Under the pieces are notes generated by a model. The model made no database searches and was not told the DNA's origin. It was given only the letters and a program-made list of their open reading frames with translations. Positions 11,211-26,489 of a stretch of 64,000 nt of DNA are shown in pieces. Where the stretch lies: assembly GCA_051656605.1 (NCBI GenBank), contig JBOGCF010000026.1, forward strand, positions 7,148 to 71,147, in the 5' to 3' direction. Positions within the stretch are counted from its first letter, which is position 1, and each line of letters begins with the position of its first letter. Source of the stretch: Tannerellaceae bacterium (GTDB taxonomy: Bacteria > Bacteroidota > Bacteroidia > Bacteroidales > CAMTPD01). Made by a program: the position numbers and the translations under genes.

Positions 11211-12623
11211 ATGAATATCGATCTTCTATACTTACTCAAAGTGAACGTGGCTTTGACTAGTTTCTATCTCGTATATAAACTGTTTTTTGGCAAAGACACC
11301 TTTTTCAAATTTCGCAGGGTAATGTTGCTCGCTGGTATTGCATTCGCATTTGTGTATCCGTTTATAGAGCTCAACAACTGGGTGGCAGAGCAGCGAATTT
11401 TTACCGGAGCGGCAGTTTACTACAGCGAGCTGAAAGAGTTTGTGGTAACGGCAGCTGAAGGAAATCAAAGTAACATGCCTCAGATGACCACCTACGCAGC
11501 AGGTCTTTATTTAATGATCAGTTTATTCTTTGCCGTTTTGTTTCTACTCAAGTGCAAAACGCTGGCGCAGATAAAACTGTCGAGTAGCAAGATCAGTCAC
11601 CAGGGCACAACAATGTATCTACCCCGCAAAGAGATGGCGCCATTTTCTTTTTTCGGATGGATCTTTTTAAACCCCGACATGTATTCGGATAGTGAACTCA
11701 AAGAAATCATCAAGCACGAGTCTACTCACTGCAGAGAGTGGCACAGTTTTGATCTTCTGGTCGCAGAATTGGTAAAAATAGCTTGTTGGATCAACCCGAT
11801 AGCATGGTTACTCAAACGCGAAATCGAACAAAACCTCGAGTACATAGCCGACCGCTCGGTCGTGGCATCGGGAGTAGATAAGCGATCTTACCAATACCAT
11901 CTCGTCGAGGTAGCATGCGGAGTTCCGCTTACTACCCTGAATACCGGATTTAATTATTGCAACTTAAAAAATCGAATCATTATGTTGAATCAAAAGAGAT
12001 CAAAGAATATATCAGGAGCAAAATATGCACTGTTTATCCCATTGTGTTTGTCATTTATCGCAGTGAACAACCTAGAAGCGGTAACCCGCATCGCGACGTC
12101 CGTAGTTACAGAAATCAAGGAAGCTCCCGAGATGAAGCCATTTCAGGACTTGACGGCCGCAGTGTTCCCAACCACAGTAAAGACAACCCGCGAAGCCGTT
12201 GAGGTGAGTCCGGTTATGCAAGACCAGAATAAAAAGCAAGAACCTCAAGACGAAGCTTTGGGTGAAGTCTTTGTAACGGTAGAAGATATGCCTGAGTTTC
12301 CGGGAGGACCAGGGGAGTTGATGAAATTTATTGCGAGTCATGTTAAATATCCGGTTGTAGCACAGCAAAATGGAATTCAAGGCCGCGTTGTGGTCGCGTT
12401 TATTGTAAACAAAGAAGGCAAAGTAGTGAAACCTGAAGTAGTGAAAGGGGTAGACCCTTCATTGGATAATGAAGCGATACGTGTGGTAAGCAGCATGCCA
12501 AAATGGAAGCCGGGTTCACAACGTGGAGTACCTGTAAACGTAAAATATACAGTTCCCGTACAATTTAAATTGCAAGGGGATGCAAAAGCAGACTCCGTAA
12601 AGACCGTTAAACCGATTAAATAA
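11211..12623 (+). CDS. BlaR1-like M56 metallopeptidase fused to a C-terminal TonB domain (module 1)
   Basis: N-terminal TM helices and an HExxH motif (HESTHCREWH). C-terminal TonB_C sequence (EDMPEFPGGPGELMKFIASHVKYPVVAQQNGIQGRVVV...VPVQF). Confidence 0.85.
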   Translation: MNIDLLYLLKVNVALTSFYLVYKLFFGKDTFFKFRRVMLLAGIAFAFVYPFIELNNWVAEQRIFTGAAVYYSELKEFVVTAAEGNQSNMPQMTTYAAGLYLMISLFFAVLFLLKCKTLAQIKLSSSKISHQGTTMYLPRKEMAPFSFFGWIFLNPDMYSDSELKEIIKHESTHCREWHSFDLLVAELVKIACWINPIAWLLKREIEQNLEYIADRSVVASGVDKRSYQYHLVEVACGVPLTTLNTGFNYCNLKNRIIMLNQKRSKNISGAKYALFIPLCLSFIAVNNLEAVTRIATSVVTEIKEAPEMKPFQDLTAAVFPTTVKTTREAVEVSPVMQDQNKKQEPQDEALGEVFVTVEDMPEFPGGPGELMKFIASHVKYPVVAQQNGIQGRVVVAFIVNKEGKVVKPEVVKGVDPSLDNEAIRVVSSMPKWKPGSQRGVPVNVKYTVPVQFKLQGDAKADSVKTVKPIK

Positions 12624-12802: not shown

Positions 12803-13168
12803 ATGGAAAAACTAACATTTCAGGAAGAAGAAGCGATGCTTATTGTATGGAAACTCGGAGAAGGGGTAATTAAAGATTTTCTACAACATTATCCGGATCC
12901 GAAGCCTCCTTATACAACCTTAGCATCTATCGTAAAGAACTTAGAGCGTAAAGGATATGTAAAAGCGAAGCGATATGGTAATACTTATTGCTATACACCG
13001 CTTATTGAGCAAGATGCTTACAAACGCAACTCGATGTCTAACTTTGTGAATAAGTACTTCGCAAATTCGTACAAGTCGATGGTGTCTTTCTTTGCAAAAG
13101 ACGAGAAGATCTCTGCCGAAGAGTTGAAAGAGATTATGTCGATCATTGAGAAAGAGAACGAACAGTAA
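12803..13168 (+). CDS. BlaI/MecI/CopY-family repressor (module 2)
   Basis: 121 aa, clearly paralogous to 10825-11199 along its full length. Confidence 0.85.
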   Translation: MEKLTFQEEEAMLIVWKLGEGVIKDFLQHYPDPKPPYTTLASIVKNLERKGYVKAKRYGNTYCYTPLIEQDAYKRNSMSNFVNKYFANSYKSMVSFFAKDEKISAEELKEIMSIIEKENEQ

Positions 13169-13185: not shown

Positions 13186-14550
13186 ATGAATTTAGATCTT
13201 GTATACTTTTTCAAGGCGAATATTGCTTTGGCCTGCTTTTATATAATGTATAAACTGTGTTTCAGTAACGATACATTCTTTCATATCAGACGTACCGTGT
13301 TGATATCGGGCATTCTTTTTGCTTTTGCATATCCTTTTATCGTTTTTCATAGTTGGGTAAAAGAGCAAAAGATTCTTTCAAATGCGGCAGACTATTATGT
13401 CGAATTGAAGGAACTGGTTGTAACGTCGACCCAAGCAGATCCGCTTTCATTTCAAAGTATACAAGGCTATCTATTCTACGTTTATCTCGGCATTTCGTTG
13501 TTGTTGGTTGCAAATTTTCTGATCAAGCTCTGCATGCTGTTGCGTATCAGGTTGGCAAGTCAACGCACGCAATATCGCGGAACCACATTGTATGTTCCGC
13601 GTGGCGAGATGGCGCCATTCTCTTTCTTCAATTGGATCTTTGTAGATCCGGCACGCTTTTCGGAAAGTGAAATCAGTGAAGTGGTGCTGCATGAACAAAC
13701 GCATAGCAAGGGCGGACATAGTTTCGACTTATTGATATTAGAGGTGGTCAAGATCTTATGCTGGGTAAATCCGTTTGTATGGCTTTTGTCGAGAGAGGTA
13801 GAACAAAACCTCGAATACATTGCCGACAATGCAGTTGTTTCGTCGGGCATTGATGCAAAAGCATATCAATATCATTTGGTCGAAGTGGCCAGCAATACAC
13901 CTATATCCGTATTGCATACCGGCTTCAACTATTATAACTTAAAGAAGCGCATCCTTGTGCTGAATCAAAAACGATCTAAGCGTATCACGTGTGCAAAATA
14001 CGCATTACTCGTTCCTGTGTGCGTGTTATTTATCGCCACAAATAGCATAGAGACTGTAACCAAGCTAGCCAACTCGATGGTGTCGGAAATCAAAGAGATC
14101 CCGGCGCAGTTAGCAGCAGCTCAACATTTGCCACAAGTGACTTTGCCTCAATTTATGCAAAAAGACAAATCCGAACAACCGGTATCTCTGGTTGTAGAGA
14201 AGCCGAAAGCAAAGCCGCTAGATCCGAATGAAGAGATTTTTGTTACCGTAGAAGACATGCCGGAGTTTCCGGGCGGACAACGTAACCTAATGAGCTTTAT
14301 CGGCAGAAACGTTAAGTATCCGGTTGTAGCACAAGAGAACGGAATACAAGGACGCGTAGTAGTTCAGTTCGTAATCAATAAAGACGGACAAGTAGCCGAT
14401 GCAACCGTTGTAAGAGGAGTAGACCCCTCTCTAGACAAAGAGGCGCTACGCGTGATTAATGCTATGCCTAACTGGAAACCCGGTTCACAGCGAGGTAATC
14501 CCGTAAACGTAAAATACACGGTGCCGGTACAATTCAGACTACAAATGTAA
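13186..14550 (+). CDS. BlaR1-like M56 metallopeptidase fused to a C-terminal TonB domain (module 2)
   Basis: HExxH motif (HEQTHSKGGH) and a TonB_C tail. Paralog of 11211-12623. Confidence 0.85.
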   Translation: MNLDLVYFFKANIALACFYIMYKLCFSNDTFFHIRRTVLISGILFAFAYPFIVFHSWVKEQKILSNAADYYVELKELVVTSTQADPLSFQSIQGYLFYVYLGISLLLVANFLIKLCMLLRIRLASQRTQYRGTTLYVPRGEMAPFSFFNWIFVDPARFSESEISEVVLHEQTHSKGGHSFDLLILEVVKILCWVNPFVWLLSREVEQNLEYIADNAVVSSGIDAKAYQYHLVEVASNTPISVLHTGFNYYNLKKRILVLNQKRSKRITCAKYALLVPVCVLFIATNSIETVTKLANSMVSEIKEIPAQLAAAQHLPQVTLPQFMQKDKSEQPVSLVVEKPKAKPLDPNEEIFVTVEDMPEFPGGQRNLMSFIGRNVKYPVVAQENGIQGRVVVQFVINKDGQVADATVVRGVDPSLDKEALRVINAMPNWKPGSQRGNPVNVKYTVPVQFRLQM

Positions 14551-14585
14551 CACACAAAACAAGTATACATGGTATCCATGTTGAG

Positions 14586-14620
14586 GCGGATAGGAGGTTT
14601 ACTCTTATCCGCTTTTTATT
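14586..14620 (+). terminator. Intrinsic terminator after BlaR module 2
   Basis: 11-bp stem GCGGATAGGAG / CTCTTATCCGC (one G:U), loop GTTTA, then TTTTTATTT. Confidence 0.85.
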
Positions 14621-14868
14621 TGTGGCACGGTGAAATACAATAAGCCGCTTTCGGGCGAAAAGGAAATCGGGTTTCGAGCATGCCAAAACAAGGTTGTTTC
14701 GATGATTTTAGCTCCTAGATTGCAGAACTCCGGTGTTTTTTCACCTTCGGAAAACGGCCTTTCCGCATTCCTCAAATCTCCCTTTTACGAGTCTCTTCCC
14801 TCTTTTGCGCGGCATCATCGCTTCGTACAGGTGGTTTTGAGGTATAAAAACGCCAAAAAGCATGCAAG

Positions 14869-15066
14869 GTTCTTGCAAAAAGGTCGTTTGGTTCTTATGA
14901 AAACGTTATTTGGTTCTCATAAGAACGTCGTTACGTTTTCGTGGAGGGTGTAAATTGTCTTCGAGGAAAACAAAAATAGTCTTCGCGGACATTTCCAGAA
15001 CTCTTCGTGGTGAATCAATTTACTCACCGTGAATACTTTTCTCACTCACTGCGGTGACTGAATGTA
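14869..15066. repeat. Phased 22-bp degenerate tandem repeat, at least 9 units, core GTCTTCGNGG
   Basis: Units start at 14869, 14891, 14913, 14935, 14957, 14979, 15001, 15023 and 15045. All begin (G/C)T(C/T)(T/A)(T/C)C(G/A)NG(G/A) when stacked by eye. Degenerate TTCG-containing copies continue across 14640-15400. Confidence 0.7.
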
Positions 15067-15469
15067 CGCACCATGCGTGCCGAGAAAGGTATGTGTGATC
15101 AATAAGGCACGTTGTTTCGTTTTGGCTGTGCTCACTGTCCCGATACCCTGGATGCTCAGACCAAAGCCACTGAGAGAGAGTTTGCCAAATCAAAAGGAAA
15201 GAGCAAGTACCCGATTTGTAAGATAATGAAAGCAGGTTTCGAATGTCGTTATAGGCAACGTTCGGTATCGGTTATCGCATAGCCTAAAATTGCGGCAATA
15301 CGTTAGATTTAAAACGATTCGATTTTTGGGTCATCTAGCGAAAAAATGCCCTTTTCGGTGATGAAAAGCGTCTTTTGCCGTTTGATTCCTTTTCGGGCAA
15401 AATAATTGGTTTTTTACAATAAGGTGCGGCCAGGCAAGATCGGAAATGAAACGATGAGGGTATAAACGC

Positions 15470-15510
15470 AAAAGAGGGTAACAGGCATCACGCCTCCCCC
15501 TCTTTTTATT
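15470..15510. terminator. Bidirectional terminator closing the etf/phn block
   Basis: Stem AAAAGAGGG / CCCTCTTTT with an inner GGC/GCC pairing. T-rich on both strands. Lies 55 nt downstream of the etfA stop. Confidence 0.65.
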
Positions 15511-15564
15511 TTCGACTTTTGAAAAACTTCCTACTCGAGGAATCTCTGTATAATCAAAGAGCTA

Positions 15565-16761
15565 TTAAACGTTTGCTCCTAAAATCTGTATCAATTCAGG
15601 CACAATCTCTTGTGCGTTGCCCACGATGCCGTAATGTGCCATCTCGAAGATCGGCGCGTCGGGGTCGTTGTTGATCGCTATCACCGTCTCCACATGATTC
15701 ATGCCCGACGTGTGTTGTATCTGTCCGCTGATGCCGCAGGCAATATACAAGCGCGGTGAAACACTTTTGCCCGTTTGGCCTACCTGCCGATCTACCGATA
15801 TCCAGCCCGCTTCTACGGCAGCGCGCGAACCGGCCACCATTCCGCCGAGCAAACCGGCTAGTCGTTCCAGGTTTCCAACGTGCTCTTTGCCTTGTATGCC
15901 TTTGCCGGCCGCGATCAATACGTCGGCATCTTCGATACGTTGCTTCGGTGTGGTGTCGGCATGCTCTTCGAGCAAGGTAACGCCATCGTTGAGCAGAGCC
16001 GTGTCAAACGCATGTTCGATGAGCAGACCTTTACGGTTGAAGTCGGGCGTTTGCGCTTGCATCACGCCCGGACGCACCGAAGCCATCTGCGGACGGTGAT
16101 GAGGCGTTTCGATCGTAGCCAGCAAGTTGCCACCGAAAGCGGGACGTTGCTGAAGCAAGTTGCCCGTTGCGTTGTCGATACGAAGCTCGGTACAGTCGGC
16201 CGTAAGACCGGTTTGCAATCGCGCCGCCGCACGTGCCGAAACTCCGCGTCCAAAGGCTGTAGCACCAATCAAGATAACCGACGGTTTGTAGCATTGCGCC
16301 AAATCGGCCAATACCTCGGCATGTCTGTTTTCGAGCATTGCGTCGAGTCCGTCATGGTTGGCGTGGTAGATTTGATCCGCACCGGAAGCAATCAGCTCGT
16401 TGCGTATCGCGTCGCTACAGGTACCAAGCACCACGGCCGATACGATCTCGTTATTTTGTTGTACCAATTCGCAGGCCTTGCCCAGCAGTTGTAGCGTAAC
16501 GGGATTTACGGCACCGTTGTTGAGTTCGCACAGTACCCAAATGCCGGCAAACTGTGACAAGTCGTCTGCCGCTGCGTTGGCGGTTTCGATCGTGATTGCT
16601 TCTGTAGGACATTCCGAGACGCAAGCGTTGCAAAGCTGGCAGGCATCTGCGTCTACTTCGGGGTATTCGCCCATCGAAAGGGCATTGTAACTACAAGCCC
16701 CTACGCATGCTTCGCATTGGATGCACGCGGTTGTATCTATATGTAACGGATGAACTTTCAT
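15565..16761 (-). CDS. etfA: Electron transfer flavoprotein alpha subunit with an N-terminal 2x[4Fe-4S] ferredoxin domain
   Basis: N-terminus has CIQCEACVGAC and CQLCNACVSECP (two CxxCxxCxxxC motifs). The C-terminus is an EtfA FAD domain (LYIACGISGQIQHTSGM, VIAINNDPDAPIF). Confidence 0.88.
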   Translation of the reverse strand: MKVHPLHIDTTACIQCEACVGACSYNALSMGEYPEVDADACQLCNACVSECPTEAITIETANAAADDLSQFAGIWVLCELNNGAVNPVTLQLLGKACELVQQNNEIVSAVVLGTCSDAIRNELIASGADQIYHANHDGLDAMLENRHAEVLADLAQCYKPSVILIGATAFGRGVSARAAARLQTGLTADCTELRIDNATGNLLQQRPAFGGNLLATIETPHHRPQMASVRPGVMQAQTPDFNRKGLLIEHAFDTALLNDGVTLLEEHADTTPKQRIEDADVLIAAGKGIQGKEHVGNLERLAGLLGGMVAGSRAAVEAGWISVDRQVGQTGKSVSPRLYIACGISGQIQHTSGMNHVETVIAINNDPDAPIFEMAHYGIVGNAQEIVPELIQILGANV

Positions 16762-16762
16762 A

Positions 16763-17533
16763 TCAAACGGTTTCCAAGGTTTTGATCAATGTGGCGAGAT
16801 CTTGTACGGTTTCAAACATGCGCACGCTGCCTGCTCGTTCGGGCACACCGGTGCGTACCACGCGGGTAGGTGAGCCAGCCAGTCCGATTTGGTCGGGATT
16901 CACTTGCAGGTCGGCCAGTCCCCAACGGATCAGCGGCTTGGTTTGCGCTGCCTCCCACCGGCGAATGGTAGGATGAGGAAGCTTGTTGGCTTCTTTGGTT
17001 ACGGTAACAGCGCACGGAAGCGTAACGCGAAGCTTTTGCACACCACGGTCGGTCCGTTTTTCCAGTGTAATGTCTTTGTTGCTAAGTTCGCAAATGCGTA
17101 CCAGATCGGTAAGCTGCGGCAGGTTGAGTTGTGCCGCTACACCCGGCCCCACCTGTGCCGTGTCGCCATCAATCGCTTGCTTGCCAAAGAGCAAAACGTC
17201 GCCCTTGCCCAGTTTGCGCACGGCGGCGGCCAATATCGCGCTTGTACTCCATGTATCGCTTCCTGCAAAGGCGCGATCGGAAAGCAATACAGCTTCGTCG
17301 GCTCCGAATACCATGGCTTCGCGCAGCGCGGCTTCGGCTTGCGGCGGTCCCATGGATACAACGGTGATGGTGCCGCCGGTTTGTGTTTTCATTTCTACCG
17401 CCGCTTGCAGTGCGTGCAAGTCATACGGATTTACTTGTGCCTTTGCGCCGGCACGTACCAGCGTATTGGTTTCCGGATCGATGTATATATTGGTTGAGGC
17501 GGGAACCTGCTTGATAAAAACGATATATTCCAA
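16763..17533 (-). CDS. etfB: Electron transfer flavoprotein beta subunit (anaerobe/bifurcating-type signature)
   Basis: MEYIVFIKQVP... and LLFGKQAIDGDTAQVGPGVAAQLNLPQ. The start codon is TTG at 17533. Its stop is 1 nt from the etfA start. Confidence 0.88.
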   Translation of the reverse strand: MEYIVFIKQVPASTNIYIDPETNTLVRAGAKAQVNPYDLHALQAAVEMKTQTGGTITVVSMGPPQAEAALREAMVFGADEAVLLSDRAFAGSDTWSTSAILAAAVRKLGKGDVLLFGKQAIDGDTAQVGPGVAAQLNLPQLTDLVRICELSNKDITLEKRTDRGVQKLRVTLPCAVTVTKEANKLPHPTIRRWEAAQTKPLIRWGLADLQVNPDQIGLAGSPTRVVRTGVPERAGSVRMFETVQDLATLIKTLETV

Positions 17534-17635
17534 AACGATACTCTTTTATCGGGAAAACTTCTTTCGGCTTCATAACGAAGGAGGAGAAGTTTCGGTTGTG
17601 TTAAGTTCTATTACTCTCTGTAGCGCGTTGCGTGA

Positions 17636-18865
17636 TCAGCCGCCCTTTTTGTTGGAACGTGCATCGGCACAACTCTTTTGAAAGGCAGGGTCGAACGGAT
17701 TGATCGCGCCGAAACGTTCGGGATCGAACGGTGCCGCGTTTACAAACGTTTCTTCGCCGGTAACGATTTCAGACAAGAGTCTGCCCATTCCTCCGCCTGC
17801 GGCAACTCCGCCACCGCAACAGCCCGAGGAGGTATAAAAGCCCTCCATGGATGAAACGCCACCTATGATGAAGTTGGCATCGGGTACGTAGCACGACGGA
17901 CCTGCCATGTAGTGCGCGATGCCCAGGTCGCGAAACTGCGGAAAGAAAGCCTCAAAGAGGGAAGCACTTTGCGAAAGCGTAGACCAGCCGTTGTCGGGAG
18001 TGAAGTCGACGTGCTCGATGTTTGTTTTCATCTCTTTGGGATCGTACGAAACGCATTCGGGTTCGCGGATGCCCACGATCAGTGCCCCAACATCGGGACG
18101 AGTAAAGGCGCGTGCGTCGGGCAATACGGCAAACGGCTGATTGGCCGGGAAAAGTGTCGGGTTTACTTCCGTGATCCAGAAGTGACTGCGCACAGGTGTG
18201 TGCGGCAAGCCGATGCCCAACGGGAAAGAAAGCAGGTTTGACCATGCTCCGGCAGCATCGATTACCACGGGCGCGTGTATTTCGTCGTTGTTGCTCAGGC
18301 GCACACCCGTAACGCGTTGGTTGCTGTGCAAGATGGTGCTTACGCCGGTACGTGTGCGAACAATCACGCCTCGTTTTTTTGCGGCTTTCGCATAGCCGTT
18401 GCAAAGAAGCGCCGCGTCGATGAATGCGTCTGTAGGCATCCAAACGGCTTCGCGCACCGATGTGTTGTCGATCCAAGGGAGCATCTCCTTCACGGCTTTC
18501 GGTCCCACTATTTCAGCTTCGATGCCAAAACGTTGCGCCGCCATGAGGGTGTCTTCCAGCCCTTTCTTGCTCGCTTCGCTTGCAGAGATGGTAAGGCTTC
18601 CTACTTGTTGCAGGTCGAGCGATTCGTTTAGTTCGCTTTGGATCTCTTCAATGCAATCGTAGGTTTCCTGCACCAGCTCCATCAGTCCCGGTTTGGTGCG
18701 GGCCCGGGTGAGCAGGCATGCGGCGCGACTGGTTGCTTGTGAGGCAATGTCGTTTTGTTCGCAAAGAACGATTTTACCCGCCTTGCGCTTGGCAAGCTGG
18801 TAAGCAGCGGAGGTTCCGAGGAGTCCTCCGCCTATGATAATGATATCTGCTGTTTGTGTTGCCAT
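17636..18865 (-). CDS. DAO-family FAD-dependent oxidoreductase (candidate amine/aminophosphonate dehydrogenase)
   Basis: 409 aa with an N-terminal DIIIIGGGLLGTSAAYQLAK Rossmann motif. The general layout resembles glycine/D-amino-acid oxidase or the sarcosine oxidase beta subunit. It starts 4 nt after the phnW stop. Confidence 0.75.
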   Translation of the reverse strand: MATQTADIIIIGGGLLGTSAAYQLAKRKAGKIVLCEQNDIASQATSRAACLLTRARTKPGLMELVQETYDCIEEIQSELNESLDLQQVGSLTISASEASKKGLEDTLMAAQRFGIEAEIVGPKAVKEMLPWIDNTSVREAVWMPTDAFIDAALLCNGYAKAAKKRGVIVRTRTGVSTILHSNQRVTGVRLSNNDEIHAPVVIDAAGAWSNLLSFPLGIGLPHTPVRSHFWITEVNPTLFPANQPFAVLPDARAFTRPDVGALIVGIREPECVSYDPKEMKTNIEHVDFTPDNGWSTLSQSASLFEAFFPQFRDLGIAHYMAGPSCYVPDANFIIGGVSSMEGFYTSSGCCGGGVAAGGGMGRLLSEIVTGEETFVNAAPFDPERFGAINPFDPAFQKSCADARSNKKGG

Positions 18866-18869
18866 GGAA

Positions 18870-19958
18870 TTATTCAGCTAAAACGGTTGCAACTGCTTGC
18901 GTGAGTGCTTCGAAGTCGCGTGGATGTACATCGCCAATGTTACCGATACGGAAGGTGTTTGCATCGGAAATCTTTCCCGGATAGATAACGAATCCGTGTT
19001 GTTTCAATTGCTCGTAGAATGTAGCAAAGCAGAAATCATCGTTCGGATACAGGAAAGAGGTGATGATTGGTGATTGCTTTTCGTCGCTGAGTAGGGTCGT
19101 ATAGCCCAGGGCTCTCATTCCTTTTACGAGGGTAGTGTGGCTGGTTTGGTAGCGGTTGTAGCGAGCTTCGATTCCGCCTTCTTCTTCCAGTTCTTTCAGT
19201 GCTTGGTGAAAAGCACGCACCACGTGGGTAGGAGAGGTGAAGCGCCACTTGCCTTTTCCTTTTTCCATTTCGTTCCATTGTGCGTACAGGTCTAGCGATA
19301 GTGATTTGGAAACACCCTTGCACGCTTCTAGTTTCTCTTTACGTGCAATTACAAAGCCGAAGCCGGGTACACCCTGAATACACTTGTTGGCACTGCTGAT
19401 CAAGAAATCAATGCCCAGCCCTTTTATGTCGATCGGAATTCCGCCAAAGCTGCTCATTGCGTCTACAATGTAAGTAAGGTTGTGCGCTTTGGCTACTTCT
19501 GCGATGGTTTCTATCGGGTTGATGATGCCGGTTGTGGTTTCGCAATGCACGACCGACAGGTGTGTAGTGCCCGGATATGCTTTAAGTGCTTCTTCAACTA
19601 CGGCAGGAGTCACTTGTTCGGTCTCGTGAAGTGAAACCAGGTTATAGTTGAGTCCCTGATACGTTGCTATTTCGGCCATGCGCGCACCATAGGCACCGTT
19701 GGCAACGATCAGCAGTTGGTCTTCCGGTTTCACGGCACAACCCAATGTTGCCTCTACTGCATACGTTCCGCTTCCTTGCAACAACACGGTGGTGTATTCA
19801 TGGTCAAGCCCGGCTGCCTTTAGCAAGCTTTCGCGTATTTCCGTCACGATACCGATGTTGTAGTCGTTGTCCCACGTGCACCAGTCTTGCAGCATGGCTT
19901 CTTTTACCGATTGAGAAGTTGTAAGCGGTCCGGGTGTAAGTAATAAATAGTTTCGCAT
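18870..19958 (-). CDS. phnW: 2-aminoethylphosphonate:pyruvate aminotransferase
   Basis: 362 aa class-V aminotransferase with the N-terminus [29 protein letters not shown], typical of PhnW. Adjacent to phnX. Confidence 0.88.
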
Positions 19959-19961
19959 GGC

Positions 19962-20777
19962 TTAGTTGTTTGAAGGGTTGATGTTGAGTCTATTATTGAT
20001 GGTCTCGATACATGCCGGTAGTTCTGCGATGGTGTCGATTACGAAGTGTGCGCCGGCTTTTAGCATGCGCGCTCTCACTTCTTCCTTGAGCGGAGTGAGT
20101 TCGTCGGCACTCATGTTGTTTACCTCCTCTTGGGTAAGACCTAATTCACTACTACCCAATACTAGTCCTACGGTCCACGTTTTTGCGTTTACCCCTTCCT
20201 TGATGTCTGCGATGGTATCTCCAACTTTTACAACCTTGTCTGTGCTGTCTACGTTTAGTGCAATCATGTTGTTGTAAATCATGAAAGGTGCAGGTCTGCC
20301 GGCTGGCATGCCTGAAGGAGTAATATAATGGTCTACGTTATATCCCTTTGCTGCTGCGCCCGGTACTACTACGTTCATCATCTCTTGGGTATAACCTGTA
20401 GTAGATCCGATCTTCATACCCTTTTCACGGAGCGACTGCAAGGTGTCGATCACGCCGTCGATTGGTGTAGTGTAGTCACTCAACGACTCGAAAAGGTATT
20501 TCTCGAAGCTTTTGTTCATGGCTACCACATCGTCCATGGTCCAGTCGCGGTTATACTTCGCCTTAAACTGCTCGTTGACCGAAGGCATGGATAGTATCGC
20601 CTTGATGTGATCGATTTTAAGTAGTCCCATCGGCTCGCGGGCCTGACGCGATGTAATGTGTATGCCGTATTCGCCTTCGAATACTTTAATAAATGCCTGA
20701 AGGGGTGCAAAACATCCGTAATCTACGGCCGTACCGGCCCAGTCCATAATAATACATGCTACATTTTTCATGTTCAA
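19962..20777 (-). CDS. phnX: Phosphonoacetaldehyde hydrolase (phosphonatase)
   Basis: HAD-fold protein with IIMDWAGTAVDYGCFAP and the Schiff-base lysine context MGLLKIDHI. Confidence 0.9.
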   Translation of the reverse strand: MNMKNVACIIMDWAGTAVDYGCFAPLQAFIKVFEGEYGIHITSRQAREPMGLLKIDHIKAILSMPSVNEQFKAKYNRDWTMDDVVAMNKSFEKYLFESLSDYTTPIDGVIDTLQSLREKGMKIGSTTGYTQEMMNVVVPGAAAKGYNVDHYITPSGMPAGRPAPFMIYNNMIALNVDSTDKVVKVGDTIADIKEGVNAKTWTVGLVLGSSELGLTQEEVNNMSADELTPLKEEVRARMLKAGAHFVIDTIAELPACIETINNRLNINPSNN

Positions 20778-20817
20778 AAGTCGTTTAGTAAGTAATTGAA
20801 TTTATTTTCTTGGATTG

Positions 20818-22131
20818 TTATTCGATAGAGTAAGCAGGAGTAAACGAAGGCACTCCGTTTTCTTTGCGGTGACGTTGCACAATGTACACGATCGAGAATG
20901 CAAAGGAGATGCAACAAACGATACCTACATAGCCTGCCAGGTTGTTGTAGAAAACCAACCAATCGATGTTGGGACTGCAAAATTCTTTTACAAGCAACAC
21001 GGCTACCGTTCCGGTGTATCCGATAAAATCGATCAGGGCGATAAAGAATCCTACGTTTCCTTTGATCTTGAAGCAAGCGATGAATCGGTCGAAAAAGATG
21101 GTTTGAAACGTAAGGTACGACGTGTACAAACACAGGCTTTGTACGAAGAGCCACGTGAGCGGCGAAAGCTCGAAGCGGCTGTGACCAAATGAGATCACCG
21201 TCATTACCACTGTTCCGATCATTACCATCACCAGTAGGGAGATAAGTGCTTTGAGGTTGTTCTTTACGAAGACCATGAGGCCGAACATTCCCAAGATTAT
21301 CAGCGTGACTACGCTGTCGAGCTGTGCAAAGATCCAGTCTGAGTACATGCTGGTATCGAAGATGTTGACTAAGAAGTCTTCCTTTATATCGCGCAGCACA
21401 ATCAGTAAGAGATTGGCGATGAAAAGCATGGTGAGTACGGGCATAAACTCAAGAAAGAGTTCTTTACGTGCCGACTTGTCGAGGGTTACTCGCTCTGTTT
21501 TCGTTTGTTTGTCGTGCGCGTCGGGATGTGGCAACTTGTTGAGCAAGTAGGCCAGAAGTGCAAGAATTGGTAGTGCAAACGCGCCGATAAAAGCCGGCAT
21601 CCAAAAGTCGCTGATGTGTAATGTATTGGTAACAAATAATCCGACCGACTTTGCCGTGCCCGACGCTACAACGATGCTGATCCCGAGCAGACTGGCAAGG
21701 ATGTCGGTAACGCGACGTCCTTCGATAAAACTGAAGATAACGCCCCACATGCAACCGAGCGACAAGCCGTTGAAAAACATGGCGGCAATGTTGTACGGCG
21801 CGGGGATGAGTCCGTAGGCTACAAGTGAGAGTTGCGCAGCCGTTACGGATGTAAGGATAAACTTAAAGCGGTTCTCCTTTTTTAGTTCCGATATTAATTT
21901 AATACCGATAAACTTAGCAATGAGATATCCGATAATTTGTGTGATGGTTACGATGGTCTTGTAATCGAAGCCAAGTATATCAAGTCCTGCGTAGGTCGAC
22001 GCAGTGTAGGGTTTGCGTAGTGCATAAACTAATGAGTAGGAGAGCAAGGCGGCGCCTCCGGCCCATAGTATAAAAAGGAGATCAGACATTCGTTTATTCG
22101 AATCGATCGTTTCGGTTGCTGTGTTGTTCAT
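20818..22131 (-). CDS. 12-TM MFS-like membrane transporter, putative AEP importer (possibly the DUF5690 family, from memory)
   Basis: 437 aa and highly hydrophobic with multiple predicted TM helices. It lies 40 nt upstream of phnX on the same strand. Confidence 0.6.
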   Translation of the reverse strand: MNNTATETIDSNKRMSDLLFILWAGGAALLSYSLVYALRKPYTASTYAGLDILGFDYKTIVTITQIIGYLIAKFIGIKLISELKKENRFKFILTSVTAAQLSLVAYGLIPAPYNIAAMFFNGLSLGCMWGVIFSFIEGRRVTDILASLLGISIVVASGTAKSVGLFVTNTLHISDFWMPAFIGAFALPILALLAYLLNKLPHPDAHDKQTKTERVTLDKSARKELFLEFMPVLTMLFIANLLLIVLRDIKEDFLVNIFDTSMYSDWIFAQLDSVVTLIILGMFGLMVFVKNNLKALISLLVMVMIGTVVMTVISFGHSRFELSPLTWLFVQSLCLYTSYLTFQTIFFDRFIACFKIKGNVGFFIALIDFIGYTGTVAVLLVKEFCSPNIDWLVFYNNLAGYVGIVCCISFAFSIVYIVQRHRKENGVPSFTPAYSIE

Positions 22132-22295
22132 ATATGTATTTTATTTCTATTTTCTTTGTTTCGACAGCAAAAGAATCGATTGTGTATTACAGGCTTGTTA
22201 CACGAGTGTGTCTGTTTTGTTTCCTGATAAGCAGGTGGTTAAGTTTAATAGTTCTGAAAGGTTTCTGTTATGGTTTTGTAACAAGGTGGGCGTGT

Positions 22296-22344
22296 AGAAA
22301 AAGAAATCCCTGCCGGTTAGCGATCGAATCTAACCGGCAGGGAT
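22296..22344 (-). terminator. Strong intrinsic terminator between porin paralog 2 and the transporter
   Basis: Perfect 15-bp stem ATCCCTGCCGGTTAG / CTAACCGGCAGGGAT with a 9-nt loop. On the minus strand it is followed by TTTCTTTTTC. Confidence 0.85.
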
Positions 22345-22367
22345 GTGTCGTATTTGTATTGTTGCTT

Positions 22368-23432
22368 TTAAATGATAGCGAAAAACCAACGGAAACCTGC
22401 AAGAATGCGGTTCTGATTGTTAGGGTTATAACCTGTGATTGCTTCGTTGTAGTGGGTGCGGCAAAACGCATACGCCAGGTGTACGTTTAGTTTGTCGCCT
22501 CCCAAGGGGTAATATTCCAATAATGTGGAAGCTGTATATTTATTGTAAATAGTGAGTGAATGATCTTTGTCGCGACGCTTGTCCCACATCCCTTTTACGC
22601 CGAATGCCCACCGGCGTTGTTTCCCCATAAAAAGTTTGTAGGAAACGATGGCCGTTTGGTCGTTTGCCATATACAGCGTGTTTTCATTCCACGAGGCCGG
22701 TTGGTAGTAGGCTCCGTTCATATAATCTACTTCGAGGGTCGATGATCCCAGTATCAGCTGATTGCCAACGGTGATCCATTGTGTCGTTTTGCCTTTGTCT
22801 ACGTTGGTAAGCATGTATCCGTAGCGGGTATTGAATGCGCCGTTGCAGAAAGAGCCTGCCCACATGGCGGCATAGTTGAAGGCGTAATCGTAGTCGGGCG
22901 CGGCAAACTGCGGAGCTCGTGCATCGGTGATTTGCAGGTTGAATTCCTGGTTGCGCACGGTGTACGCTGCTCGGATTCCGGTTTCGTATGCCTGAATCAG
23001 GTTGTTGGGTTGCGAGAAGAAGTAAAGCGTGGACGTGTTGTAGTTGTATTCGAATGTGCCGAGTTGCACGATTTGTTTCCCGGCCTCGATGCGCCAACGT
23101 TGCGTGGGACGGTAGATGAGCATGGCATAATCGGTGGCGGCAAGAAAGTTGTCTTTCGATACACTTCCCGACTTGTTGAGTCGCTGCCGTATGAGGTAGC
23201 CGAGTTGGGGCGAGAAGTCTCCTTCGAGAACGACGCGGAAAGTGGTTGCCTTGAATGCGGCATTGTTCTTTTCCCGGTTGTTGATACTGCCGTCGAAGTC
23301 GATACGTAAGTCAAGTTTGATGGCATGTTTCTCTTTGTTGAAAACAGAGTCGAGGCTAAAAGCTTGTGCCTTTTCGGTGATAAATAAAAATGAACACAGG
23401 GTTAGTAGTGTGTACGATAATGTGTGTTTCAT
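22368..23432 (-). CDS. Outer-membrane porin-like beta-barrel, paralog of 7182-8378
   Basis: Signal peptide MKHTLSYTLLTLCSFLFITEKAQA. Collinear similarity to the ansB-linked porin (RIDFDG..AAFKA..F+.VL.GD..P...YL+RQRLNK.G...KDNFLA.TD). Confidence 0.6.
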   Translation of the reverse strand: MKHTLSYTLLTLCSFLFITEKAQAFSLDSVFNKEKHAIKLDLRIDFDGSINNREKNNAAFKATTFRVVLEGDFSPQLGYLIRQRLNKSGSVSKDNFLAATDYAMLIYRPTQRWRIEAGKQIVQLGTFEYNYNTSTLYFFSQPNNLIQAYETGIRAAYTVRNQEFNLQITDARAPQFAAPDYDYAFNYAAMWAGSFCNGAFNTRYGYMLTNVDKGKTTQWITVGNQLILGSSTLEVDYMNGAYYQPASWNENTLYMANDQTAIVSYKLFMGKQRRWAFGVKGMWDKRRDKDHSLTIYNKYTASTLLEYYPLGGDKLNVHLAYAFCRTHYNEAITGYNPNNQNRILAGFRWFFAII

Positions 23433-23459
23433 GGAAAAATAGAGTTACTACAAATAAGA

Positions 23460-23489
23460 AGCCGCATTATCCAATGGAGTAATGCGGCT
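23460..23489 (-). terminator. Terminator after the FAD protein gene
   Basis: Perfect 10-bp stem AGCCGCATTA / TAATGCGGCT with a 10-nt loop. T-rich downstream on the minus strand. Confidence 0.7.
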
Positions 23490-23496
23490 GGGTATA

Positions 23497-25065
23497 TTAA
23501 GCGTTTGTTTTCGAGTACTGTTCCGTTATGCTTTCGGCACAACGTTCGCCGTCGATAGCGGCCGATACGATTCCGCCTGCATATCCGGCACCTTCACCAC
23601 ATGGGTAAAGTCCTTTGATGCGGATGTGTTGCAAGGTTTCTCTGTCGCGCAGGATACGAACAGGGGCAGAAGTGCGACTTTCCACGCCGATCATTACGGC
23701 TTCGTTGGTAAGGAAACCGTGCGACATTTTACCGAATTGCTTGAATCCGTCGCGCAGGCGCGATGTTACGAACTCCGGCATCCAGAAGTGAAGCGGAGAG
23801 GCAAGCAGACCCGGTGCATACGACGACTCGGGAAGATCAAATGAGTTCTTCTTGTTTACGAAGTCGACCATACGTTGTGCCGGTGCGGTTTGCTTCATGC
23901 CGCCGTTGAGCCAGCATAGTTCTTCGAGATGCTCTTGAAACTTCAATACGCAAAGCTCTTCGTGCTCGGCGTAGTCGGTAAGGTCTTCGGGACGCACTTC
24001 AACAACCATTCCTGAGTTTGCCCACTTTGATCCGCGGCGTGATGCCGACATTCCGTTCACAACTACTTGGCGCGGAGCGGTAGAAGCCGGAACGACTACA
24101 CCACCCGGACACATGCAGAATGAATAAACGCCGCGTCCGTTGGCTTGCGTTACAAAGCTGTATTCGGCAGCCGGAAGGTATTTTCCGCGACCATCTTTCG
24201 AGTGGTATTGGATCTGATCAATCAGCTCTTGCGGATGTTCGAGACGTACACCTACGGCAATTCCTTTGGCTTCGATCTCTACGCCTGCTTCTTTTAAGTA
24301 ATAATATACGTCGCGTGCCGAGTGACCGGTTGCGAGAATAACAGGGCCATTAAACGTGGTTCCGTTTTGTGTTTCGATACCGACAACTTCATCCTTCTCG
24401 AAGATCAACTTGTCCATACGTGTTTCGAAATGTACTTCTCCACCGCAACGGATGATGGTGTTGCGCATGTTTTCGATAATGCCCGGCAACTTGTCTGTTC
24501 CTACGTGCGGATGCGCGTCCATCAAGATTGAAGTGGAAGCGCCGTGTTGGCACAGGATATTCAAGATGCGGTCTACTGATCCGCGTTTTTTGCTACGGGT
24601 ATATAGTTTGCCGTCAGAGAACGCTCCGGCTCCACCTTCACCGAAACTGTAGTTCGACTCCGGGTCTACCAGGTGTTCGCGACTAATGCGTGCGATGTCT
24701 TTGCGACGGTCGTGTACGTTCTTTCCTCGTTCGATCACGATTGGGCGCATGTCTGCTTCGATCAAGCGGAGCGCGGCAAACAATCCGCCGGGACCCGCAC
24801 CTACTACGATTACGGCAGGCGCATTCGAAACATCTTTATAATCGATCGATGTATATTCTGCATCGGTAGGCAGTTCGTTGATGTATACACGAACTTTTAG
24901 ATTGATAAAGATGGTACGCTGACGTGCGTCGATAGAACGCTTCAGGATACGTACGGCTTTGATGTTTTTAGGAAGTATGTCGTGCTCTGTAGCAATGTAT
25001 TCTTTCAATTGCTGTTCTTGAGCGGCTATATGCGGTAATACGCGTAATTGAAACTCTTTTGTCAT
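23497..25065 (-). CDS. NAD(P)/FAD-dependent oxidoreductase (COG2509-like uncharacterised dehydrogenase)
   Basis: 522 aa with VIVVGAGPGGLFAALRL. The overall layout matches the conserved FAD-dependent protein family. Confidence 0.7.
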   Translation of the reverse strand: MTKEFQLRVLPHIAAQEQQLKEYIATEHDILPKNIKAVRILKRSIDARQRTIFINLKVRVYINELPTDAEYTSIDYKDVSNAPAVIVVGAGPGGLFAALRLIEADMRPIVIERGKNVHDRRKDIARISREHLVDPESNYSFGEGGAGAFSDGKLYTRSKKRGSVDRILNILCQHGASTSILMDAHPHVGTDKLPGIIENMRNTIIRCGGEVHFETRMDKLIFEKDEVVGIETQNGTTFNGPVILATGHSARDVYYYLKEAGVEIEAKGIAVGVRLEHPQELIDQIQYHSKDGRGKYLPAAEYSFVTQANGRGVYSFCMCPGGVVVPASTAPRQVVVNGMSASRRGSKWANSGMVVEVRPEDLTDYAEHEELCVLKFQEHLEELCWLNGGMKQTAPAQRMVDFVNKKNSFDLPESSYAPGLLASPLHFWMPEFVTSRLRDGFKQFGKMSHGFLTNEAVMIGVESRTSAPVRILRDRETLQHIRIKGLYPCGEGAGYAGGIVSAAIDGERCAESITEQYSKTNA

Positions 25066-25121
25066 CTTGTATATGTTCTGTATGCAAAGATACGATTTTC
25101 AAGGATGCTTCTTTCCCAAAA

Positions 25122-26489
25122 TTAGCTAAACAAAAAGCGAAAAGCTTCTTCTACTTTCCTAACGGTTACGATTTGTATATTCATTTTTGAGGTGTCGAAT
25201 CCTTTGAGGTTGTTGTGAGGGATGATGATCTTCTTAAAGCCTAACTTCTCGGCTTCAAGGATTCGTTGCTCGATTCGGTTTACCGGGCGGATCTCTCCCG
25301 ATAGTCCCACTTCTCCGGCCATACAGACTTGTCGATCGATGGCAATATCGAGGCTCGACGAAAGTACGGCACTGATTACGGCAAGGTCTATCGCGGGGTC
25401 ATTTACTTTGAGGCCTCCGGCAATGTTGAGGAAGACGTCTTTTTGAACAAGTTTGAAGCCGGCGCGCTTTTCGAGCACAGCCAGTAGCATGTTCATGCGT
25501 CTGCTGTCGAATCCGGTTGCCGAACGCTGCGGAGTTCCGTATACGGCCGTACTTACGAGTGCTTGTGTTTCGATGAGAAACGAGCGTACTCCTTCTATCG
25601 CTGCCGCAATGGCAACGCCGCTTAGGCCTTCGTGATTTTGGGTAAGCAGCAACTCCGACGGGTTACTTACCTGGCGCAGTCCGTTGCGTTGCATTTCGTA
25701 GATGCCGAGTTCGGCCGTACTACCAAAACGGTTTTTGATACTTCGCAAGATGCGGTACATGTAGTGCTGGTCGCCTTCAAACTGAAGTACGGTGTCTACA
25801 ATGTGCTCCAGTACTTTCGGTCCGGCGATGCTGCCTTCTTTATTAATGTGTCCGATGAGTAAAACCGGCGTGTTTGTTTCTTTTGCGTACTTAAGAATGA
25901 GGGCAGAGCTTTCGCGTACTTGCGCCACGCTACCCGGGGATGACTCTACCGTTTCGGTGAAAATGGTTTGAATCGAGTCTATAATTAATAAATCGGGATT
26001 GAGTTGTTTGGTGTGAGCAAATATCTGCTCGAGATTTGTTTCGCAAAGGATGTAGCAGTCGCTGGTTTCTTCGCTGAGGCGTTCGGCGCGTAGTTTTAGT
26101 TGTTTGTAGCTCTCTTCGCCCGAAACATAAAGGGTGTTGAACCCTTTCATTTGAAGTGCTGTTTGAAGAATCAGTGTTGATTTTCCGATTCCGGGTTCTC
26201 CGCCAATCAAGACCAAAGAGCCTTTAACGAGTCCTCCTCCCAATACGCGATTGAGTTCTTCGTCGCCCAAATTAATTCTGGTTTCTTCGCCGGAAGTGAT
26301 TTCTCTTAGCTTCTGAGGCTTTGCTTTTGGGGTGTCGAGTCCGGCAATGACACGTTTAGCAGATGTGTCTTTGGCCAAAACTTCTTCAACGTAAGTATTC
26401 CATTCTCCGCAAGCGGGACATTTGCCAATCCACTTAGGGGAGTCGGCTCCGCAATTGCTGCATACATAAACTGTTTTAGTCTTTGCCAT
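25122..26489 (-). CDS. radA: DNA repair protein RadA/Sms
   Basis: Zinc ribbon CSNCG...CPACGEW, Walker A GEPGIGKST, the KNRFG motif and a Lon-like C-terminal domain. Confidence 0.95.
   Translation of the reverse strand: MAKTKTVYVCSNCGADSPKWIGKCPACGEWNTYVEEVLAKDTSAKRVIAGLDTPKAKPQKLREITSGEETRINLGDEELNRVLGGGLVKGSLVLIGGEPGIGKSTLILQTALQMKGFNTLYVSGEESYKQLKLRAERLSEETSDCYILCETNLEQIFAHTKQLNPDLLIIDSIQTIFTETVESSPGSVAQVRESSALILKYAKETNTPVLLIGHINKEGSIAGPKVLEHIVDTVLQFEGDQHYMYRILRSIKNRFGSTAELGIYEMQRNGLRQVSNPSELLLTQNHEGLSGVAIAAAIEGVRSFLIETQALVSTAVYGTPQRSATGFDSRRMNMLLAVLEKRAGFKLVQKDVFLNIAGGLKVNDPAIDLAVISAVLSSSLDIAIDRQVCMAGEVGLSGEIRPVNRIEQRILEAEKLGFKKIIIPHNNLKGFDTSKMNIQIVTVRKVEEAFRFLFS

Follow-up and report, generated by a model that had tools for sequence, protein, structure and literature searches.

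PbfC of Azospirillum sp. B510, a flavoprotein of about 410 aa with a single DAO-fold domain, converts N-methyl-AEP (AEP, 2-aminoethylphosphonate) to phosphonoacetaldehyde and methylamine, with a 400-fold discrimination against AEP. It reacts poorly with O2 and does not reduce NAD(P)+ (Zangelmi et al. 2023, PMC10590968). The dimethylglycine and sarcosine dehydrogenases are likewise DAO-fold amine dehydrogenases that give their electrons to an ETF and not to O2; they carry an additional folate-binding C-terminal half and use an AMP-containing canonical mitochondrial ETF that feeds ETF:ubiquinone oxidoreductase. The Ldh-EtfAB complex (LctBCD) of Acetobacterium woodii is an electron-confurcating lactate dehydrogenase, the substrate of which cannot reduce NAD+ directly, and its ferredoxin domain is needed for confurcation. 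CarCDE (caffeyl-CoA reductase-Etf, PDB 6fah) works in the bifurcating (reductive) direction with an acyl-CoA dehydrogenase-fold reductase as partner; in both CarCDE and Ldh-EtfAB the ferredoxin domain serves the low-potential branch. One glycine of EtfB has been described as invariant in bifurcating ETFs. Near relatives of such ETFs can be non-bifurcating, as in the Clostridium propionicum enzyme, and the Ldh-linked ETF of one anaerobe was shown to be canonical.

The locus described here lies in a stretch of 64,000 nucleotides, the whole of which is called the window. The initial annotation had proposed a block of seven genes on the minus strand; an ORF check found seven co-directional ORFs there, and coordinates and family assignments agreed. 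The expected families PF01266 (DAO), PF01012 and PF00766 (ETF) and Fer4 were all assigned. The features are as follows.

22368..23432, minus strand: Porin_O_P outer-membrane porin (PF07396, E 3e-13)
22306..22344, minus strand: terminator-like hairpin past the porin stop codon (15-bp stem, 9-nt loop)
20818..22131, minus strand: DUF5690 inner-membrane permease (PF18943, E 1.6e-140)
19962..20777, minus strand: PhnX, phosphonoacetaldehyde hydrolase (TIGR01422, 338 bits against a cutoff of 220)
18870..19958, minus strand: PhnW, 2-aminoethylphosphonate:pyruvate transaminase (TIGR02326, 563 bits against a cutoff of 401)
17636..18865, minus strand: predicted PbfC-like FAD-dependent aminophosphonate dehydrogenase, DAO fold, 409 aa (PF01266, E 9e-61)
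17534..17635, minus strand: spacer of 102 nt between the pbfC-like gene and etfB (structure not significant, z -0.62)
16763..17533, minus strand: EtfB, bifurcating type, TTG start (PF01012)
15565..16761, minus strand: EtfA with an N-terminal 2x[4Fe-4S] ferredoxin domain of the CarE type (PF01012, PF00766, two Fer4 motifs)
15470..15506, unstranded: hairpin with A-run and U-run flanks (-19.7 kcal/mol, z -3.87)

The spacers reported earlier were correct, with 3 nt between phnX and phnW, 4 nt between phnW and the flavoprotein gene, and 1 nt between etfB and etfA. The DUF5690 gene and phnX are 40 nt apart; the spacer before etfB is 102 nt long in the window versus 4-50 nt in most related loci. The co-direction of the seven genes held, but the porin probably has its own transcript, separate from the downstream genes, because the hairpin directly 3' of its stop codon has a perfect stem and a U-rich tract (22296-22305). 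It folded at -28.2 kcal/mol (z -7.55), and 0 of 200 shuffles folded equally well. The layout is probably one porin gene plus a six-gene operon, DUF5690-phnX-phnW-DAO-etfB-etfA. A terminator had been placed past etfA, and the hairpin found at 15470-15506 is likely a bidirectional terminator closing the operon. As also remarked in the initial annotation, the ETF has no usual partner nearby: neither an acyl-CoA dehydrogenase gene nor one for a lactate dehydrogenase was found within about 10 kb of the locus.

PhnW and PhnX, the two enzymes of the phosphonatase pathway, both scored above the NCBIfam equivalog cutoffs, and the DWAGT and LKIDHI motifs were both found in PhnX. An ATG at 20771 may be the true start of phnX. 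The basic unit DUF5690-phnX-phnW also stands alone in Bacteroidales, for example in Parabacteroides gordonii, whereas in the window pbfC-etfB-etfA follow on its 3' side and lengthen it. The protein first described as a 12-TM transporter belongs to Pfam DUF5690. Members of this family are encoded upstream of phnX-phnW across Bacteroidales, and a paralogue is encoded upstream of the pbfC-like gene. A comparison of the DUF5690 protein with the PDB gave no match; judged by its sequence, it is therefore not a transporter of the AepP/GlpT-type MFS. It is a candidate aminophosphonate importer, which would differ from AepXVW, AepP, AepSTU and PhnCDE.

The 409-aa flavoprotein aligned with Azospirillum PbfC over 409 positions (E 4e-80) with 38.6% identity, a value that does not fix its substrate specificity. 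Its matches to PbfB, PbfD1 and PbfD2 had E values of 4e-4 or worse and were confined to the FAD-binding N-terminus. The PbfC cluster representative (P0364) was its fifth best match among 1.84 billion representatives, and its best characterised relatives were PbfC, 1y56_B of P. horikoshii, dimethylglycine dehydrogenase and sarcosine oxidase beta. Residues T53, R54, R56, R267 and H318 do not vary among the Bacteroidales proteins and are common to PbfC; a Thermoflexales homologue linked to PhoX has them too, but homologues from non-phosphorus contexts have others in their place. R362 is common to the flavoprotein and PbfC and is Leu in the Thermoflexales protein. The two also have in common the C-terminal tail C-A-x-A-R-S-x-K and the motifs AA(A/C)LLTRAR, PVRS(Q/H)(Y/F)WIT, GIAHY and GCCGxGxAAxGGxGR. 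The nearest relatives outside Bacteroidales are encoded in phnW-phnX-DAO (P0366) and DAO-DUF5690-HD (P0362) contexts. Equally similar homologues (36-40% identity) adjoin trimethylamine monooxygenase and TMAO demethylase genes, and others of this identity lie in peptide-transporter, amidohydrolase or other non-phosphonate contexts. The tree was star-like, and the clade joining the window protein and PbfC had 12-25% bootstrap. The Bacteroidales proteins form a separate 50%-identity cluster, and their genes always have etfBA downstream, whereas the listed PbfC representatives are all from Proteobacteria. The Azospirillum gene adjoins phnW and phnX as in the window, but no ETF gene lies within 12 kb of it.

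Both ETF subunits were then compared with the PDB, and the five solved bifurcating ETFs were the top matches for both, far ahead of the canonical ones. EtfB scored 183-195 bits against the five bifurcating EtfB structures, CarD being among its best matches, versus 80 or less against canonical ones. The best match of EtfA was CarE (6fah_A, 311 bits), over its full length (residues 11-394) and with the dicluster ferredoxin domain covered. EtfB carries QAIDGDTAQVGP; Gly123 in DGDTAQVGP, the equivalent of the diagnostic glycine, and the wider motif are invariant in 35/35 relatives. The alpha-FAD signature LYIACGISGQIQHTSG is present in EtfA, and its two clusters, CIQCEACVGAC and CQLCNACVSEC, correspond to CxxCxxCxxxC motifs kept in 33/33 relatives. 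By sequence, EtfB has the marks of a second FAD site, the bifurcating one, and EtfA those of a CarE-like 2x[4Fe-4S] domain, in line with the features of anaerobe-type, bifurcating ETFs noted at the outset. The arrangement resembles that of Ldh-EtfAB, where a dehydrogenase gene likewise adjoins the genes for an EtfB of the bifurcating type and for an EtfA whose N-terminus is a ferredoxin domain; the dehydrogenase is of the GlcD type there and of the DAO fold here, and LctC has one [4Fe-4S] cluster versus two motifs in the window EtfA. The window differs from the dimethylglycine and sarcosine systems in that its ETF is bifurcating in type and no gene for a quinone reductase lies near it.

We examined synteny in 37 Bacteroidales-type loci with a pbfC-like gene. 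Among those with enough downstream sequence, the pbfC-like gene was followed by etfB in 36/36 and then by etfA in 35/35, so the linkage was kept in every such locus; a metagenome locus with an EtfA only 45% identical had the identical order. The phnX-phnW pair lies within 10 kb of the pbfC-like gene in 13/37 loci (chance expectation, well below one locus), usually as a separate DUF5690-phnX-phnW module; the window has the merged form. Millionella massiliensis, Bacteroides sp. GD17 and a pair of Bacteroides MAGs have this merged gene order too, indicating that the window arrangement is not due to chance. The merged operon occurs in at least five genomes of several families. Wide occurrence of the DAO-etfBA trio away from phn genes had been named as evidence against a phosphonate role, and it was found in part: among the 21 loci with full flanks, 15 had no phnX or phnW within about 10 kb. 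These 15 still have the DUF5690 permease paralogue.

With a probability of roughly 0.7, the operon and the nearby Porin_O_P gene serve anaerobic aminophosphonate scavenging, in which PbfC-EtfBA oxidises N-methyl-AEP to phosphonoacetaldehyde, probably with confurcation. The porin would let the substrate through the outer membrane, and the DUF5690 permease would carry it across the inner one. PhnW would transaminate plain AEP to phosphonoacetaldehyde, and the flavoprotein would convert an AEP derivative unusable by PhnW, most likely N-methyl-AEP, to phosphonoacetaldehyde and the free amine; PhnX would then split this aldehyde into acetaldehyde and phosphate. Since O2 is hardly used by PbfC-type enzymes, NAD(P)+ is not reduced by them and the host lives anaerobically, the co-encoded EtfBA, perhaps in a physical complex with the flavoprotein, may re-oxidise the reduced flavin through the alpha-FAD that the mobile domain of EtfA carries. 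The second-FAD-site features of EtfB and the CarE-like domain of EtfA point to confurcation of the Ldh-EtfAB kind, where a mid-potential donor and reduced ferredoxin reduce NAD+: most likely, amine + reduced ferredoxin + 2 NAD+ would give imine + oxidised ferredoxin + 2 NADH, pulled forward by imine hydrolysis and C-P cleavage. The initial annotation had suggested that the DAO enzyme oxidises an N-alkylated aminophosphonate and passes electrons to the adjacent ETF, a coupling it did not know to have been described. Full-length PbfC homology, invariant etfBA synteny and the bifurcating-ETF hallmarks support this as far as computation reaches, and no paper that connects an ETF with phosphonate catabolism came up in a literature search. 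The operon linkage in gut Bacteroidales suggests a candidate electron acceptor for PbfC and, if true, an oxygen-free route to the use of methylated phosphonates.

It is unlikely that EtfBA is a plain carrier, with the same substrate and first acceptor, that hands electrons to an acceptor encoded elsewhere, such as an ETF oxidoreductase that reduces menaquinone for fumarate respiration, or another high-potential partner reached via the iron-sulfur domain. Canonical ETFs do act as acceptors for the dimethylglycine and sarcosine dehydrogenases, which are of the DAO fold, bifurcating-like ETFs of anaerobes can be non-bifurcating, and menaquinone (about -74 mV) would be thermodynamically suited to accept electrons from an amine; however, no ETF:quinone oxidoreductase, FixC or FixX gene was found in any of the 37 loci, and both the EtfB glycine motif and the CarE-type ferredoxin domain are kept throughout. 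We consider it very improbable that the flavoprotein-EtfBA system oxidises a small anionic compound other than a phosphonate, either an amine or an alcohol, and lies next to phnWX in the window by accident; such a substrate could be derived from an amino acid or be a phosphate ester (phosphoethanolamine or glycerol-3-phosphate, for instance). The recurrence of phnXW near the module, the six residues specifically common to validated PbfC (T53 to R362 above), the phosphonate-type clusters of the nearest relatives outside Bacteroidales, and a module permease paralogous to the one heading DUF5690-phnX-phnW operons argue against it, although most fully flanked loci have no phnWX nearby, homologues of 36-40% identity occur in other contexts, and GlpA-type models match the N-terminal half of the flavoprotein. 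In FixABCX systems a flavoprotein and a ferredoxin-like protein accompany the bifurcating ETF, but there is next to no chance that the flavoprotein is such a FixC/ETF-QO-like re-oxidant of the ETF instead of a substrate dehydrogenase: PF01266 matches its whole length, no FixC or ETF-QO model was among the matches listed, and its family matches and PbfC homology contradict this identity.

With regard to the porin, a paralogue adjoins an asparaginase gene, and Porin_O_P is for this reason not a specific phosphorus marker here. In 22 related loci the Porin_O_P gene lies directly 3' of etfA, unlike its position in the window.

ORF and profile searches confirmed all seven minus-strand ORFs that the initial annotation had placed in this block; the motifs it quoted and its spacers of 3 nt (phnX/phnW), 4 nt (the pbfC-like gene starts 4 nt downstream of phnW) and 1 nt (etfB/etfA) were also correct.

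Features of the minus-strand block in the window
15470-15506, hairpin with flanking A- and U-runs, closing the block
15565-16761, minus strand, EtfA (PF01012, PF00766 and two Fer4 motifs; profile search)
16763-17533, minus strand, EtfB (profile search)
17636-18865, minus strand, full-length PF01266 (DAO) flavoprotein (profile search)
18870-19958, minus strand, PhnW (TIGR02326, 563 bits vs cutoff 400.8)
19962-20777, minus strand, PhnX (TIGR01422, 338 bits vs cutoff 220)
20818-22131, minus strand, DUF5690 protein (Pfam)
22306-22344, hairpin with a 15-bp perfect stem and then a U-tract, directly 3' of the porin stop (-28.2 kcal/mol, z -7.6)
22368-23432, minus strand, Porin_O_P protein (profile search)

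The seven genes had been read as one block. A hairpin with a U-tract follows the porin stop; therefore, the porin gene probably stands apart, and the likely layout is a porin gene alone and, after it, an operon of six genes. The 102 nt that separate the flavoprotein gene from etfB were unstructured (z -0.6). The same genes were present at 89-98% identity in the MAG contig L005. Mechanical ORF calling started both phnX and etfB with TTG. For phnX, the ATG at 20771, two codons downstream of the TTG, is the more likely start; etfB has no in-frame ATG upstream of its TTG, and its product aligned to solved EtfB proteins from residue 2. Rfam gave no RNA families in 14000-26000 of the window, and a sigma-70 promoter scan of the window, using a model ill-suited to Bacteroidota promoters, gave fewer matches than shuffled sequences.

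PhnW and PhnX both scored above the equivalog cutoffs of their models. PhnX contains DWAGT and LKIDHI, which we take to be the Asp nucleophile and Schiff-base Lys motifs. A search for PhnX homologues yielded Parabacteroides-type sequences only, among the 120 matches listed.

All domains expected from the initial annotation (DAO PF01266, ETF PF01012 and PF00766, Fer4) were found. PF01266 spans residues 7-366 of the 409-aa flavoprotein (Pfam, E 9e-61), and this single-domain architecture of about 410 aa is that of PbfC, the N-methyl-2-aminoethylphosphonate (N-methyl-AEP) dehydrogenase of Azospirillum sp. B510. The PbfC reference sequence is printed in the supplement of Zangelmi et al. (2023; PMC10590968), and its exact version was recovered from plasmid pAB510a. 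The alignment of the flavoprotein with PbfC runs from residue 6 to the flavoprotein's C-terminus (38.6% identity, E 4e-80), but PbfB, PbfD1 and PbfD2 aligned only at E 4e-4 or worse; no characterised enzyme, PbfB and PbfD included, was closer to it than validated PbfC. The two proteins have distinctive motifs in common, including a C-terminal CAxARSxK tail. The best solved structure matched at E 5e-29, and the top structure matches were P. horikoshii 1y56_B, dimethylglycine dehydrogenase and sarcosine oxidase beta. All matches in NCBIfam, to amine oxidases, were below threshold; TIGR03329 and TIGR03364, the latter used to annotate PbfD enzymes, scored the protein far under their cutoffs. Assignment as a FixC/ETF-quinone oxidoreductase was rejected because the best matches were amine oxidases and dehydrogenases, and no FixC/ETF-QO model appeared among the Pfam or 25 NCBIfam matches listed.

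An exhaustive homologue search over 1.84 billion cluster representatives placed all Bacteroidales members in one 50%-identity cluster, and the next representatives were 43% identical or less to the flavoprotein. The representative of PbfC's own cluster (database protein P0364, 65% identical to PbfC) ranked fifth. Other close representatives came from the clusters phnW-phnX-DAO and DAO-DUF5690-HD. Residues T53, R54, R56, R267 and H318 were invariant across the Bacteroidales flavoproteins and common to PbfC and the closest outside homologue, a Thermoflexales protein adjoining the phosphatase PhoX. Homologues at the same distance whose genes lie next to those for trimethylamine monooxygenase and TMAO demethylase, peptide transporters or amidohydrolases have other residues at these positions. 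R362 is also found in PbfC, whereas the Thermoflexales protein has Leu there. These six residues bear on the predicted oxidation of N-methyl-AEP by the flavoprotein to phosphonoacetaldehyde and methylamine, with poor O2 reactivity.

In a neighbour-joining tree of 68 sequences (200 bootstraps), which was star-like, the clade of the window protein and PbfC without the Q267 and Y267 groups had 12-25% support, and a wider clade had 79-90%; the sister relationship between the Bacteroidales clade and PbfC was left unresolved. Its place in the PbfC group is thus argued from sequence similarity, signature residues and gene context; the tree offers no supported clade for it. The comparison with PbfB/C/D and FixC/ETF-QO proposed in the initial annotation pointed, by similarity, to PbfC rather than to PbfB/PbfD or FixC/ETF-QO.

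Homologues of 38-43% identity were seen in three differing contexts, around position 10000 each of contigs L040, L041 and L042: PhoX (Thermoflexales), trimethylamine monooxygenase with TMAO demethylase (Rhodospirillales), and PhnD-PhnC-PhnE-PhnE (Methylomirabilia). The Methylomirabilia homologue lies directly upstream of this phosphonate ABC transporter, and its group has Tyr for Arg267. Pfam identified PhnDCE, PhoX and Tmm/Tdm among the neighbours of the distant DAO homologues; phmmer found no ETF or phn genes beside them.

Both ETF subunits scored far higher against the five bifurcating ETFs of known structure (CarDE, T. maritima FixAB, C. difficile EtfAB, A. fermentans EtfAB and LctBC) than against canonical ETFs: 237-311 bits vs 150 or less for EtfA, and 183-195 bits vs 80 or less for EtfB. 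The alignment of EtfA to CarE, the EtfA of the caffeyl-CoA reductase complex, begins at residue 11, and the match therefore takes in the dicluster ferredoxin domain. The EtfA N-terminus carries two CxxCxxCxxxC motifs with Fer4 matches, and both motifs were present in 33/33 relatives. Gly123 of EtfB (A. fermentans numbering) is reported to occur without exception in bifurcating ETFs, whereas canonical ETFs have bulkier residues there; a small residue at this position makes room for the second flavin. The window EtfB has G123 within DGDTAQVGP, aligned to G123 of 4kpu_B and invariant in 35/35 relatives. Bit scores, Gly123 and the dicluster motifs thus support the reading of the pair as an anaerobe-type, candidate bifurcating ETF. 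On a Thermoplasmata contig, ferredoxin-domain EtfA proteins of about 46% identity are paired with acyl-CoA dehydrogenase, so this ETF type seems to have taken on a new partner.

The gene neighbourhood was compared across 37 Bacteroidales-type loci, from Rikenellaceae, Porphyromonadaceae and Paludibacteraceae records and eight genera (Bacteroides, Phocaeicola, Paraprevotella, Prevotella, Xylanibacter, Marseilla, Mediterranea and Parabacteroides). Where downstream sequence sufficed, etfB followed the pbfC-like gene in 36/36 loci, and etfA came after it in 35/35; of the synteny that the initial annotation proposed to test across Bacteroidota, pbfC-etfBA was thus conserved in Bacteroidales-type loci. 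The commonest unit was DUF5690-pbfC-etfB-etfA-Porin_O_P (22 loci), in which the porin start overlaps the etfA stop. The link to phnWX held only in part: phnX-phnW lay within 10 kb in 13/37 loci, but were absent within about 10 kb in 15/21 fully flanked loci, which counts against a phosphonate link. In 6 of the 13, phnX-phnW made up a second module, with a separate DUF5690 paralogue at its head. The merged order DUF5690-phnX-phnW-pbfC-etfB-etfA also occurs in Millionella massiliensis, Bacteroides sp. GD17 and two Bacteroides MAGs, and Parabacteroides gordonii has a bare DUF5690-phnX-phnW beside Porin_O_P and a PHO4 phosphate transporter.

A 665-aa DAO-EtfB fusion (P0031) was discarded as evidence for a complex. 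The likeliest explanation is that one G was lost following an A6 run (L004:6285-6310), which abolishes the normal GG-stop ending; EtfA is also split on the same contig of this MAG. The fusion is thus a probable 1-nt deletion artefact, and the evidence that bears on a putative dehydrogenase-EtfAB complex is gene adjacency.

PbfC converts N-methyl-AEP to phosphonoacetaldehyde and methylamine with a kcat/KM of 4.5e4 M-1 s-1 (Zangelmi et al., 2023; PMC10590968) and a 400-fold discrimination against AEP. It is active with DCPIP but hardly with O2, and NAD(P)+ is not reduced; the authors left the physiological acceptor of PbfC open, as 'a quinone ... or perhaps some carrier protein', and oxidative routes to phosphonoacetaldehyde were judged aerobic only (PMC10590968). 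The PbfC examples listed are Proteobacteria throughout, and no ETF genes were found within 12 kb of Azospirillum pbfC.

The analysis shows gene identities, homology, synteny and ETF hallmarks. We give a probability of roughly 70% to the reading that the operon serves anaerobic aminophosphonate scavenging, with PbfC re-oxidised by EtfBA, probably in a confurcating manner. The substrate would enter through the porin and then DUF5690; PhnW would process AEP and the PbfC-like enzyme N-methyl-AEP or a similar derivative; PhnX would release phosphate, and the reduced FAD of PbfC would be re-oxidised by the alpha-FAD of EtfA. The initial proposal that the DAO enzyme acts on N-alkylated AEP and passes electrons to the adjacent ETF gains support, at the level of sequence, from PbfC homology, synteny and the ETF hallmarks.

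Amine/imine couples lie far above NAD+/NADH (proline/P5C, roughly -0.1 V), which fits the failure of PbfC to reduce NAD(P)+. With ferredoxin at about -450 mV, NADH at -320 mV and menaquinone at -74 mV, the sensible electron outlets in a strict anaerobe are menaquinone, or confurcation with reduced ferredoxin onto NAD+. By analogy with the confurcating lactate dehydrogenase of Acetobacterium woodii (Ldh-EtfAB), confurcation is favoured because the second-FAD site and the ferredoxin domain are conserved and the loci have no ETF:quinone oxidoreductase gene. Ldh-EtfAB cannot confurcate without its ferredoxin domain. The chance that electrons leave by this route is put at about one half. The full reaction, in which PbfC-EtfBA would convert N-methyl-AEP, reduced ferredoxin and 2 NAD+ to phosphonoacetaldehyde, methylamine and 2 NADH, is put forward more tentatively, at somewhat less than even odds.

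PhnWX, PbfC and bifurcating ETFs are already known. No account of their combination was found in the literature, in agreement with the initial annotation: publications naming both AEP and ETF were unrelated to phosphonate-ETF coupling, and nothing relevant was found joining phosphonate with EtfAB or PF01266 with bifurcation. The PbfB/C/D paper (PMC10590968) and later papers of that group, up to September 2026, do not mention ETF, ferredoxin or Bacteroidetes. The pbfC-etfB-etfA linkage, invariant in Bacteroidales, points to one specific candidate acceptor for PbfC, and this candidate is testable with three recombinant proteins. An oxygen-free route would indicate how strict anaerobes in animal guts could use N-methylated phosphonates, head groups of invertebrate phosphonolipids among them. 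Should the ETF function as predicted from its sequence, an amine dehydrogenase would join the partners of bifurcating ETFs, so far acyl-CoA dehydrogenases, caffeyl-CoA reductase, lactate dehydrogenase and FixCX. If PbfC-EtfBA is confurcating, we know of no earlier ETF-based bifurcating or confurcating complex in which the partner has a DAO fold and the substrate is an amine. Taken further, ETF could be the long-sought physiological acceptor of PbfC-type dehydrogenases generally, with a housekeeping ETF in this role in aerobes.

Across Bacteroidales, DUF5690 stands first in both the phnX-phnW and the pbfC-etfBA modules. It makes a good candidate for a family of aminophosphonate permeases yet to be characterised, which gives this domain a functional hypothesis. 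It had no match at E of 1 or below among solved structures, including GlpT, a relative of AepP. In a DUF5690 tree, the window permease (20818-22131, minus strand) grouped with the P. gordonii copy, which suggests that a basic AEP operon gained pbfC-etfBA. On a short, unrelated metagenome contig (L056:93-4040), a DAO protein 43% identical to the window protein is followed by DUF5690, HD-domain and PHP-domain proteins. PhnZ, a C-P-cleaving oxygenase, is an HD-domain enzyme, and this cluster may therefore be another phosphonate-processing cluster of different design.

Nearly all related loci encode, divergently from DUF5690, a conserved protein of about 295-302 aa with a helix-turn-helix-like stretch at its N-terminus, for example:
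L001:7583-8491, minus strand, conserved protein of about 300 aa
L049:7541-8422, minus strand, conserved protein of about 300 aa
L004:761-1639, minus strand, conserved protein of about 300 aa

It had no significant Pfam match and was absent from the 64-kb window and the Millionella locus. Four two-module genomes (L019, L023, L029 and L033) have two paralogues of about 39% identity, one per module. This unannotated family emerges as a likely cognate regulator.

A second Porin_O_P paralogue (7182-8420, minus strand) lies directly upstream of an asparaginase gene (6085-7137, minus strand); therefore, porins of this family in this genome are not necessarily phosphate-specific. Just past the etfA terminator, on the strand opposite to the operon, the window encodes tandem BlaR1/M56-like sensors (11211-12623 and 13186-14550, plus strand), each fused to a TonB C-terminal domain, with a small BlaI-like, repressor-sized ORF (12803-13168) between them.
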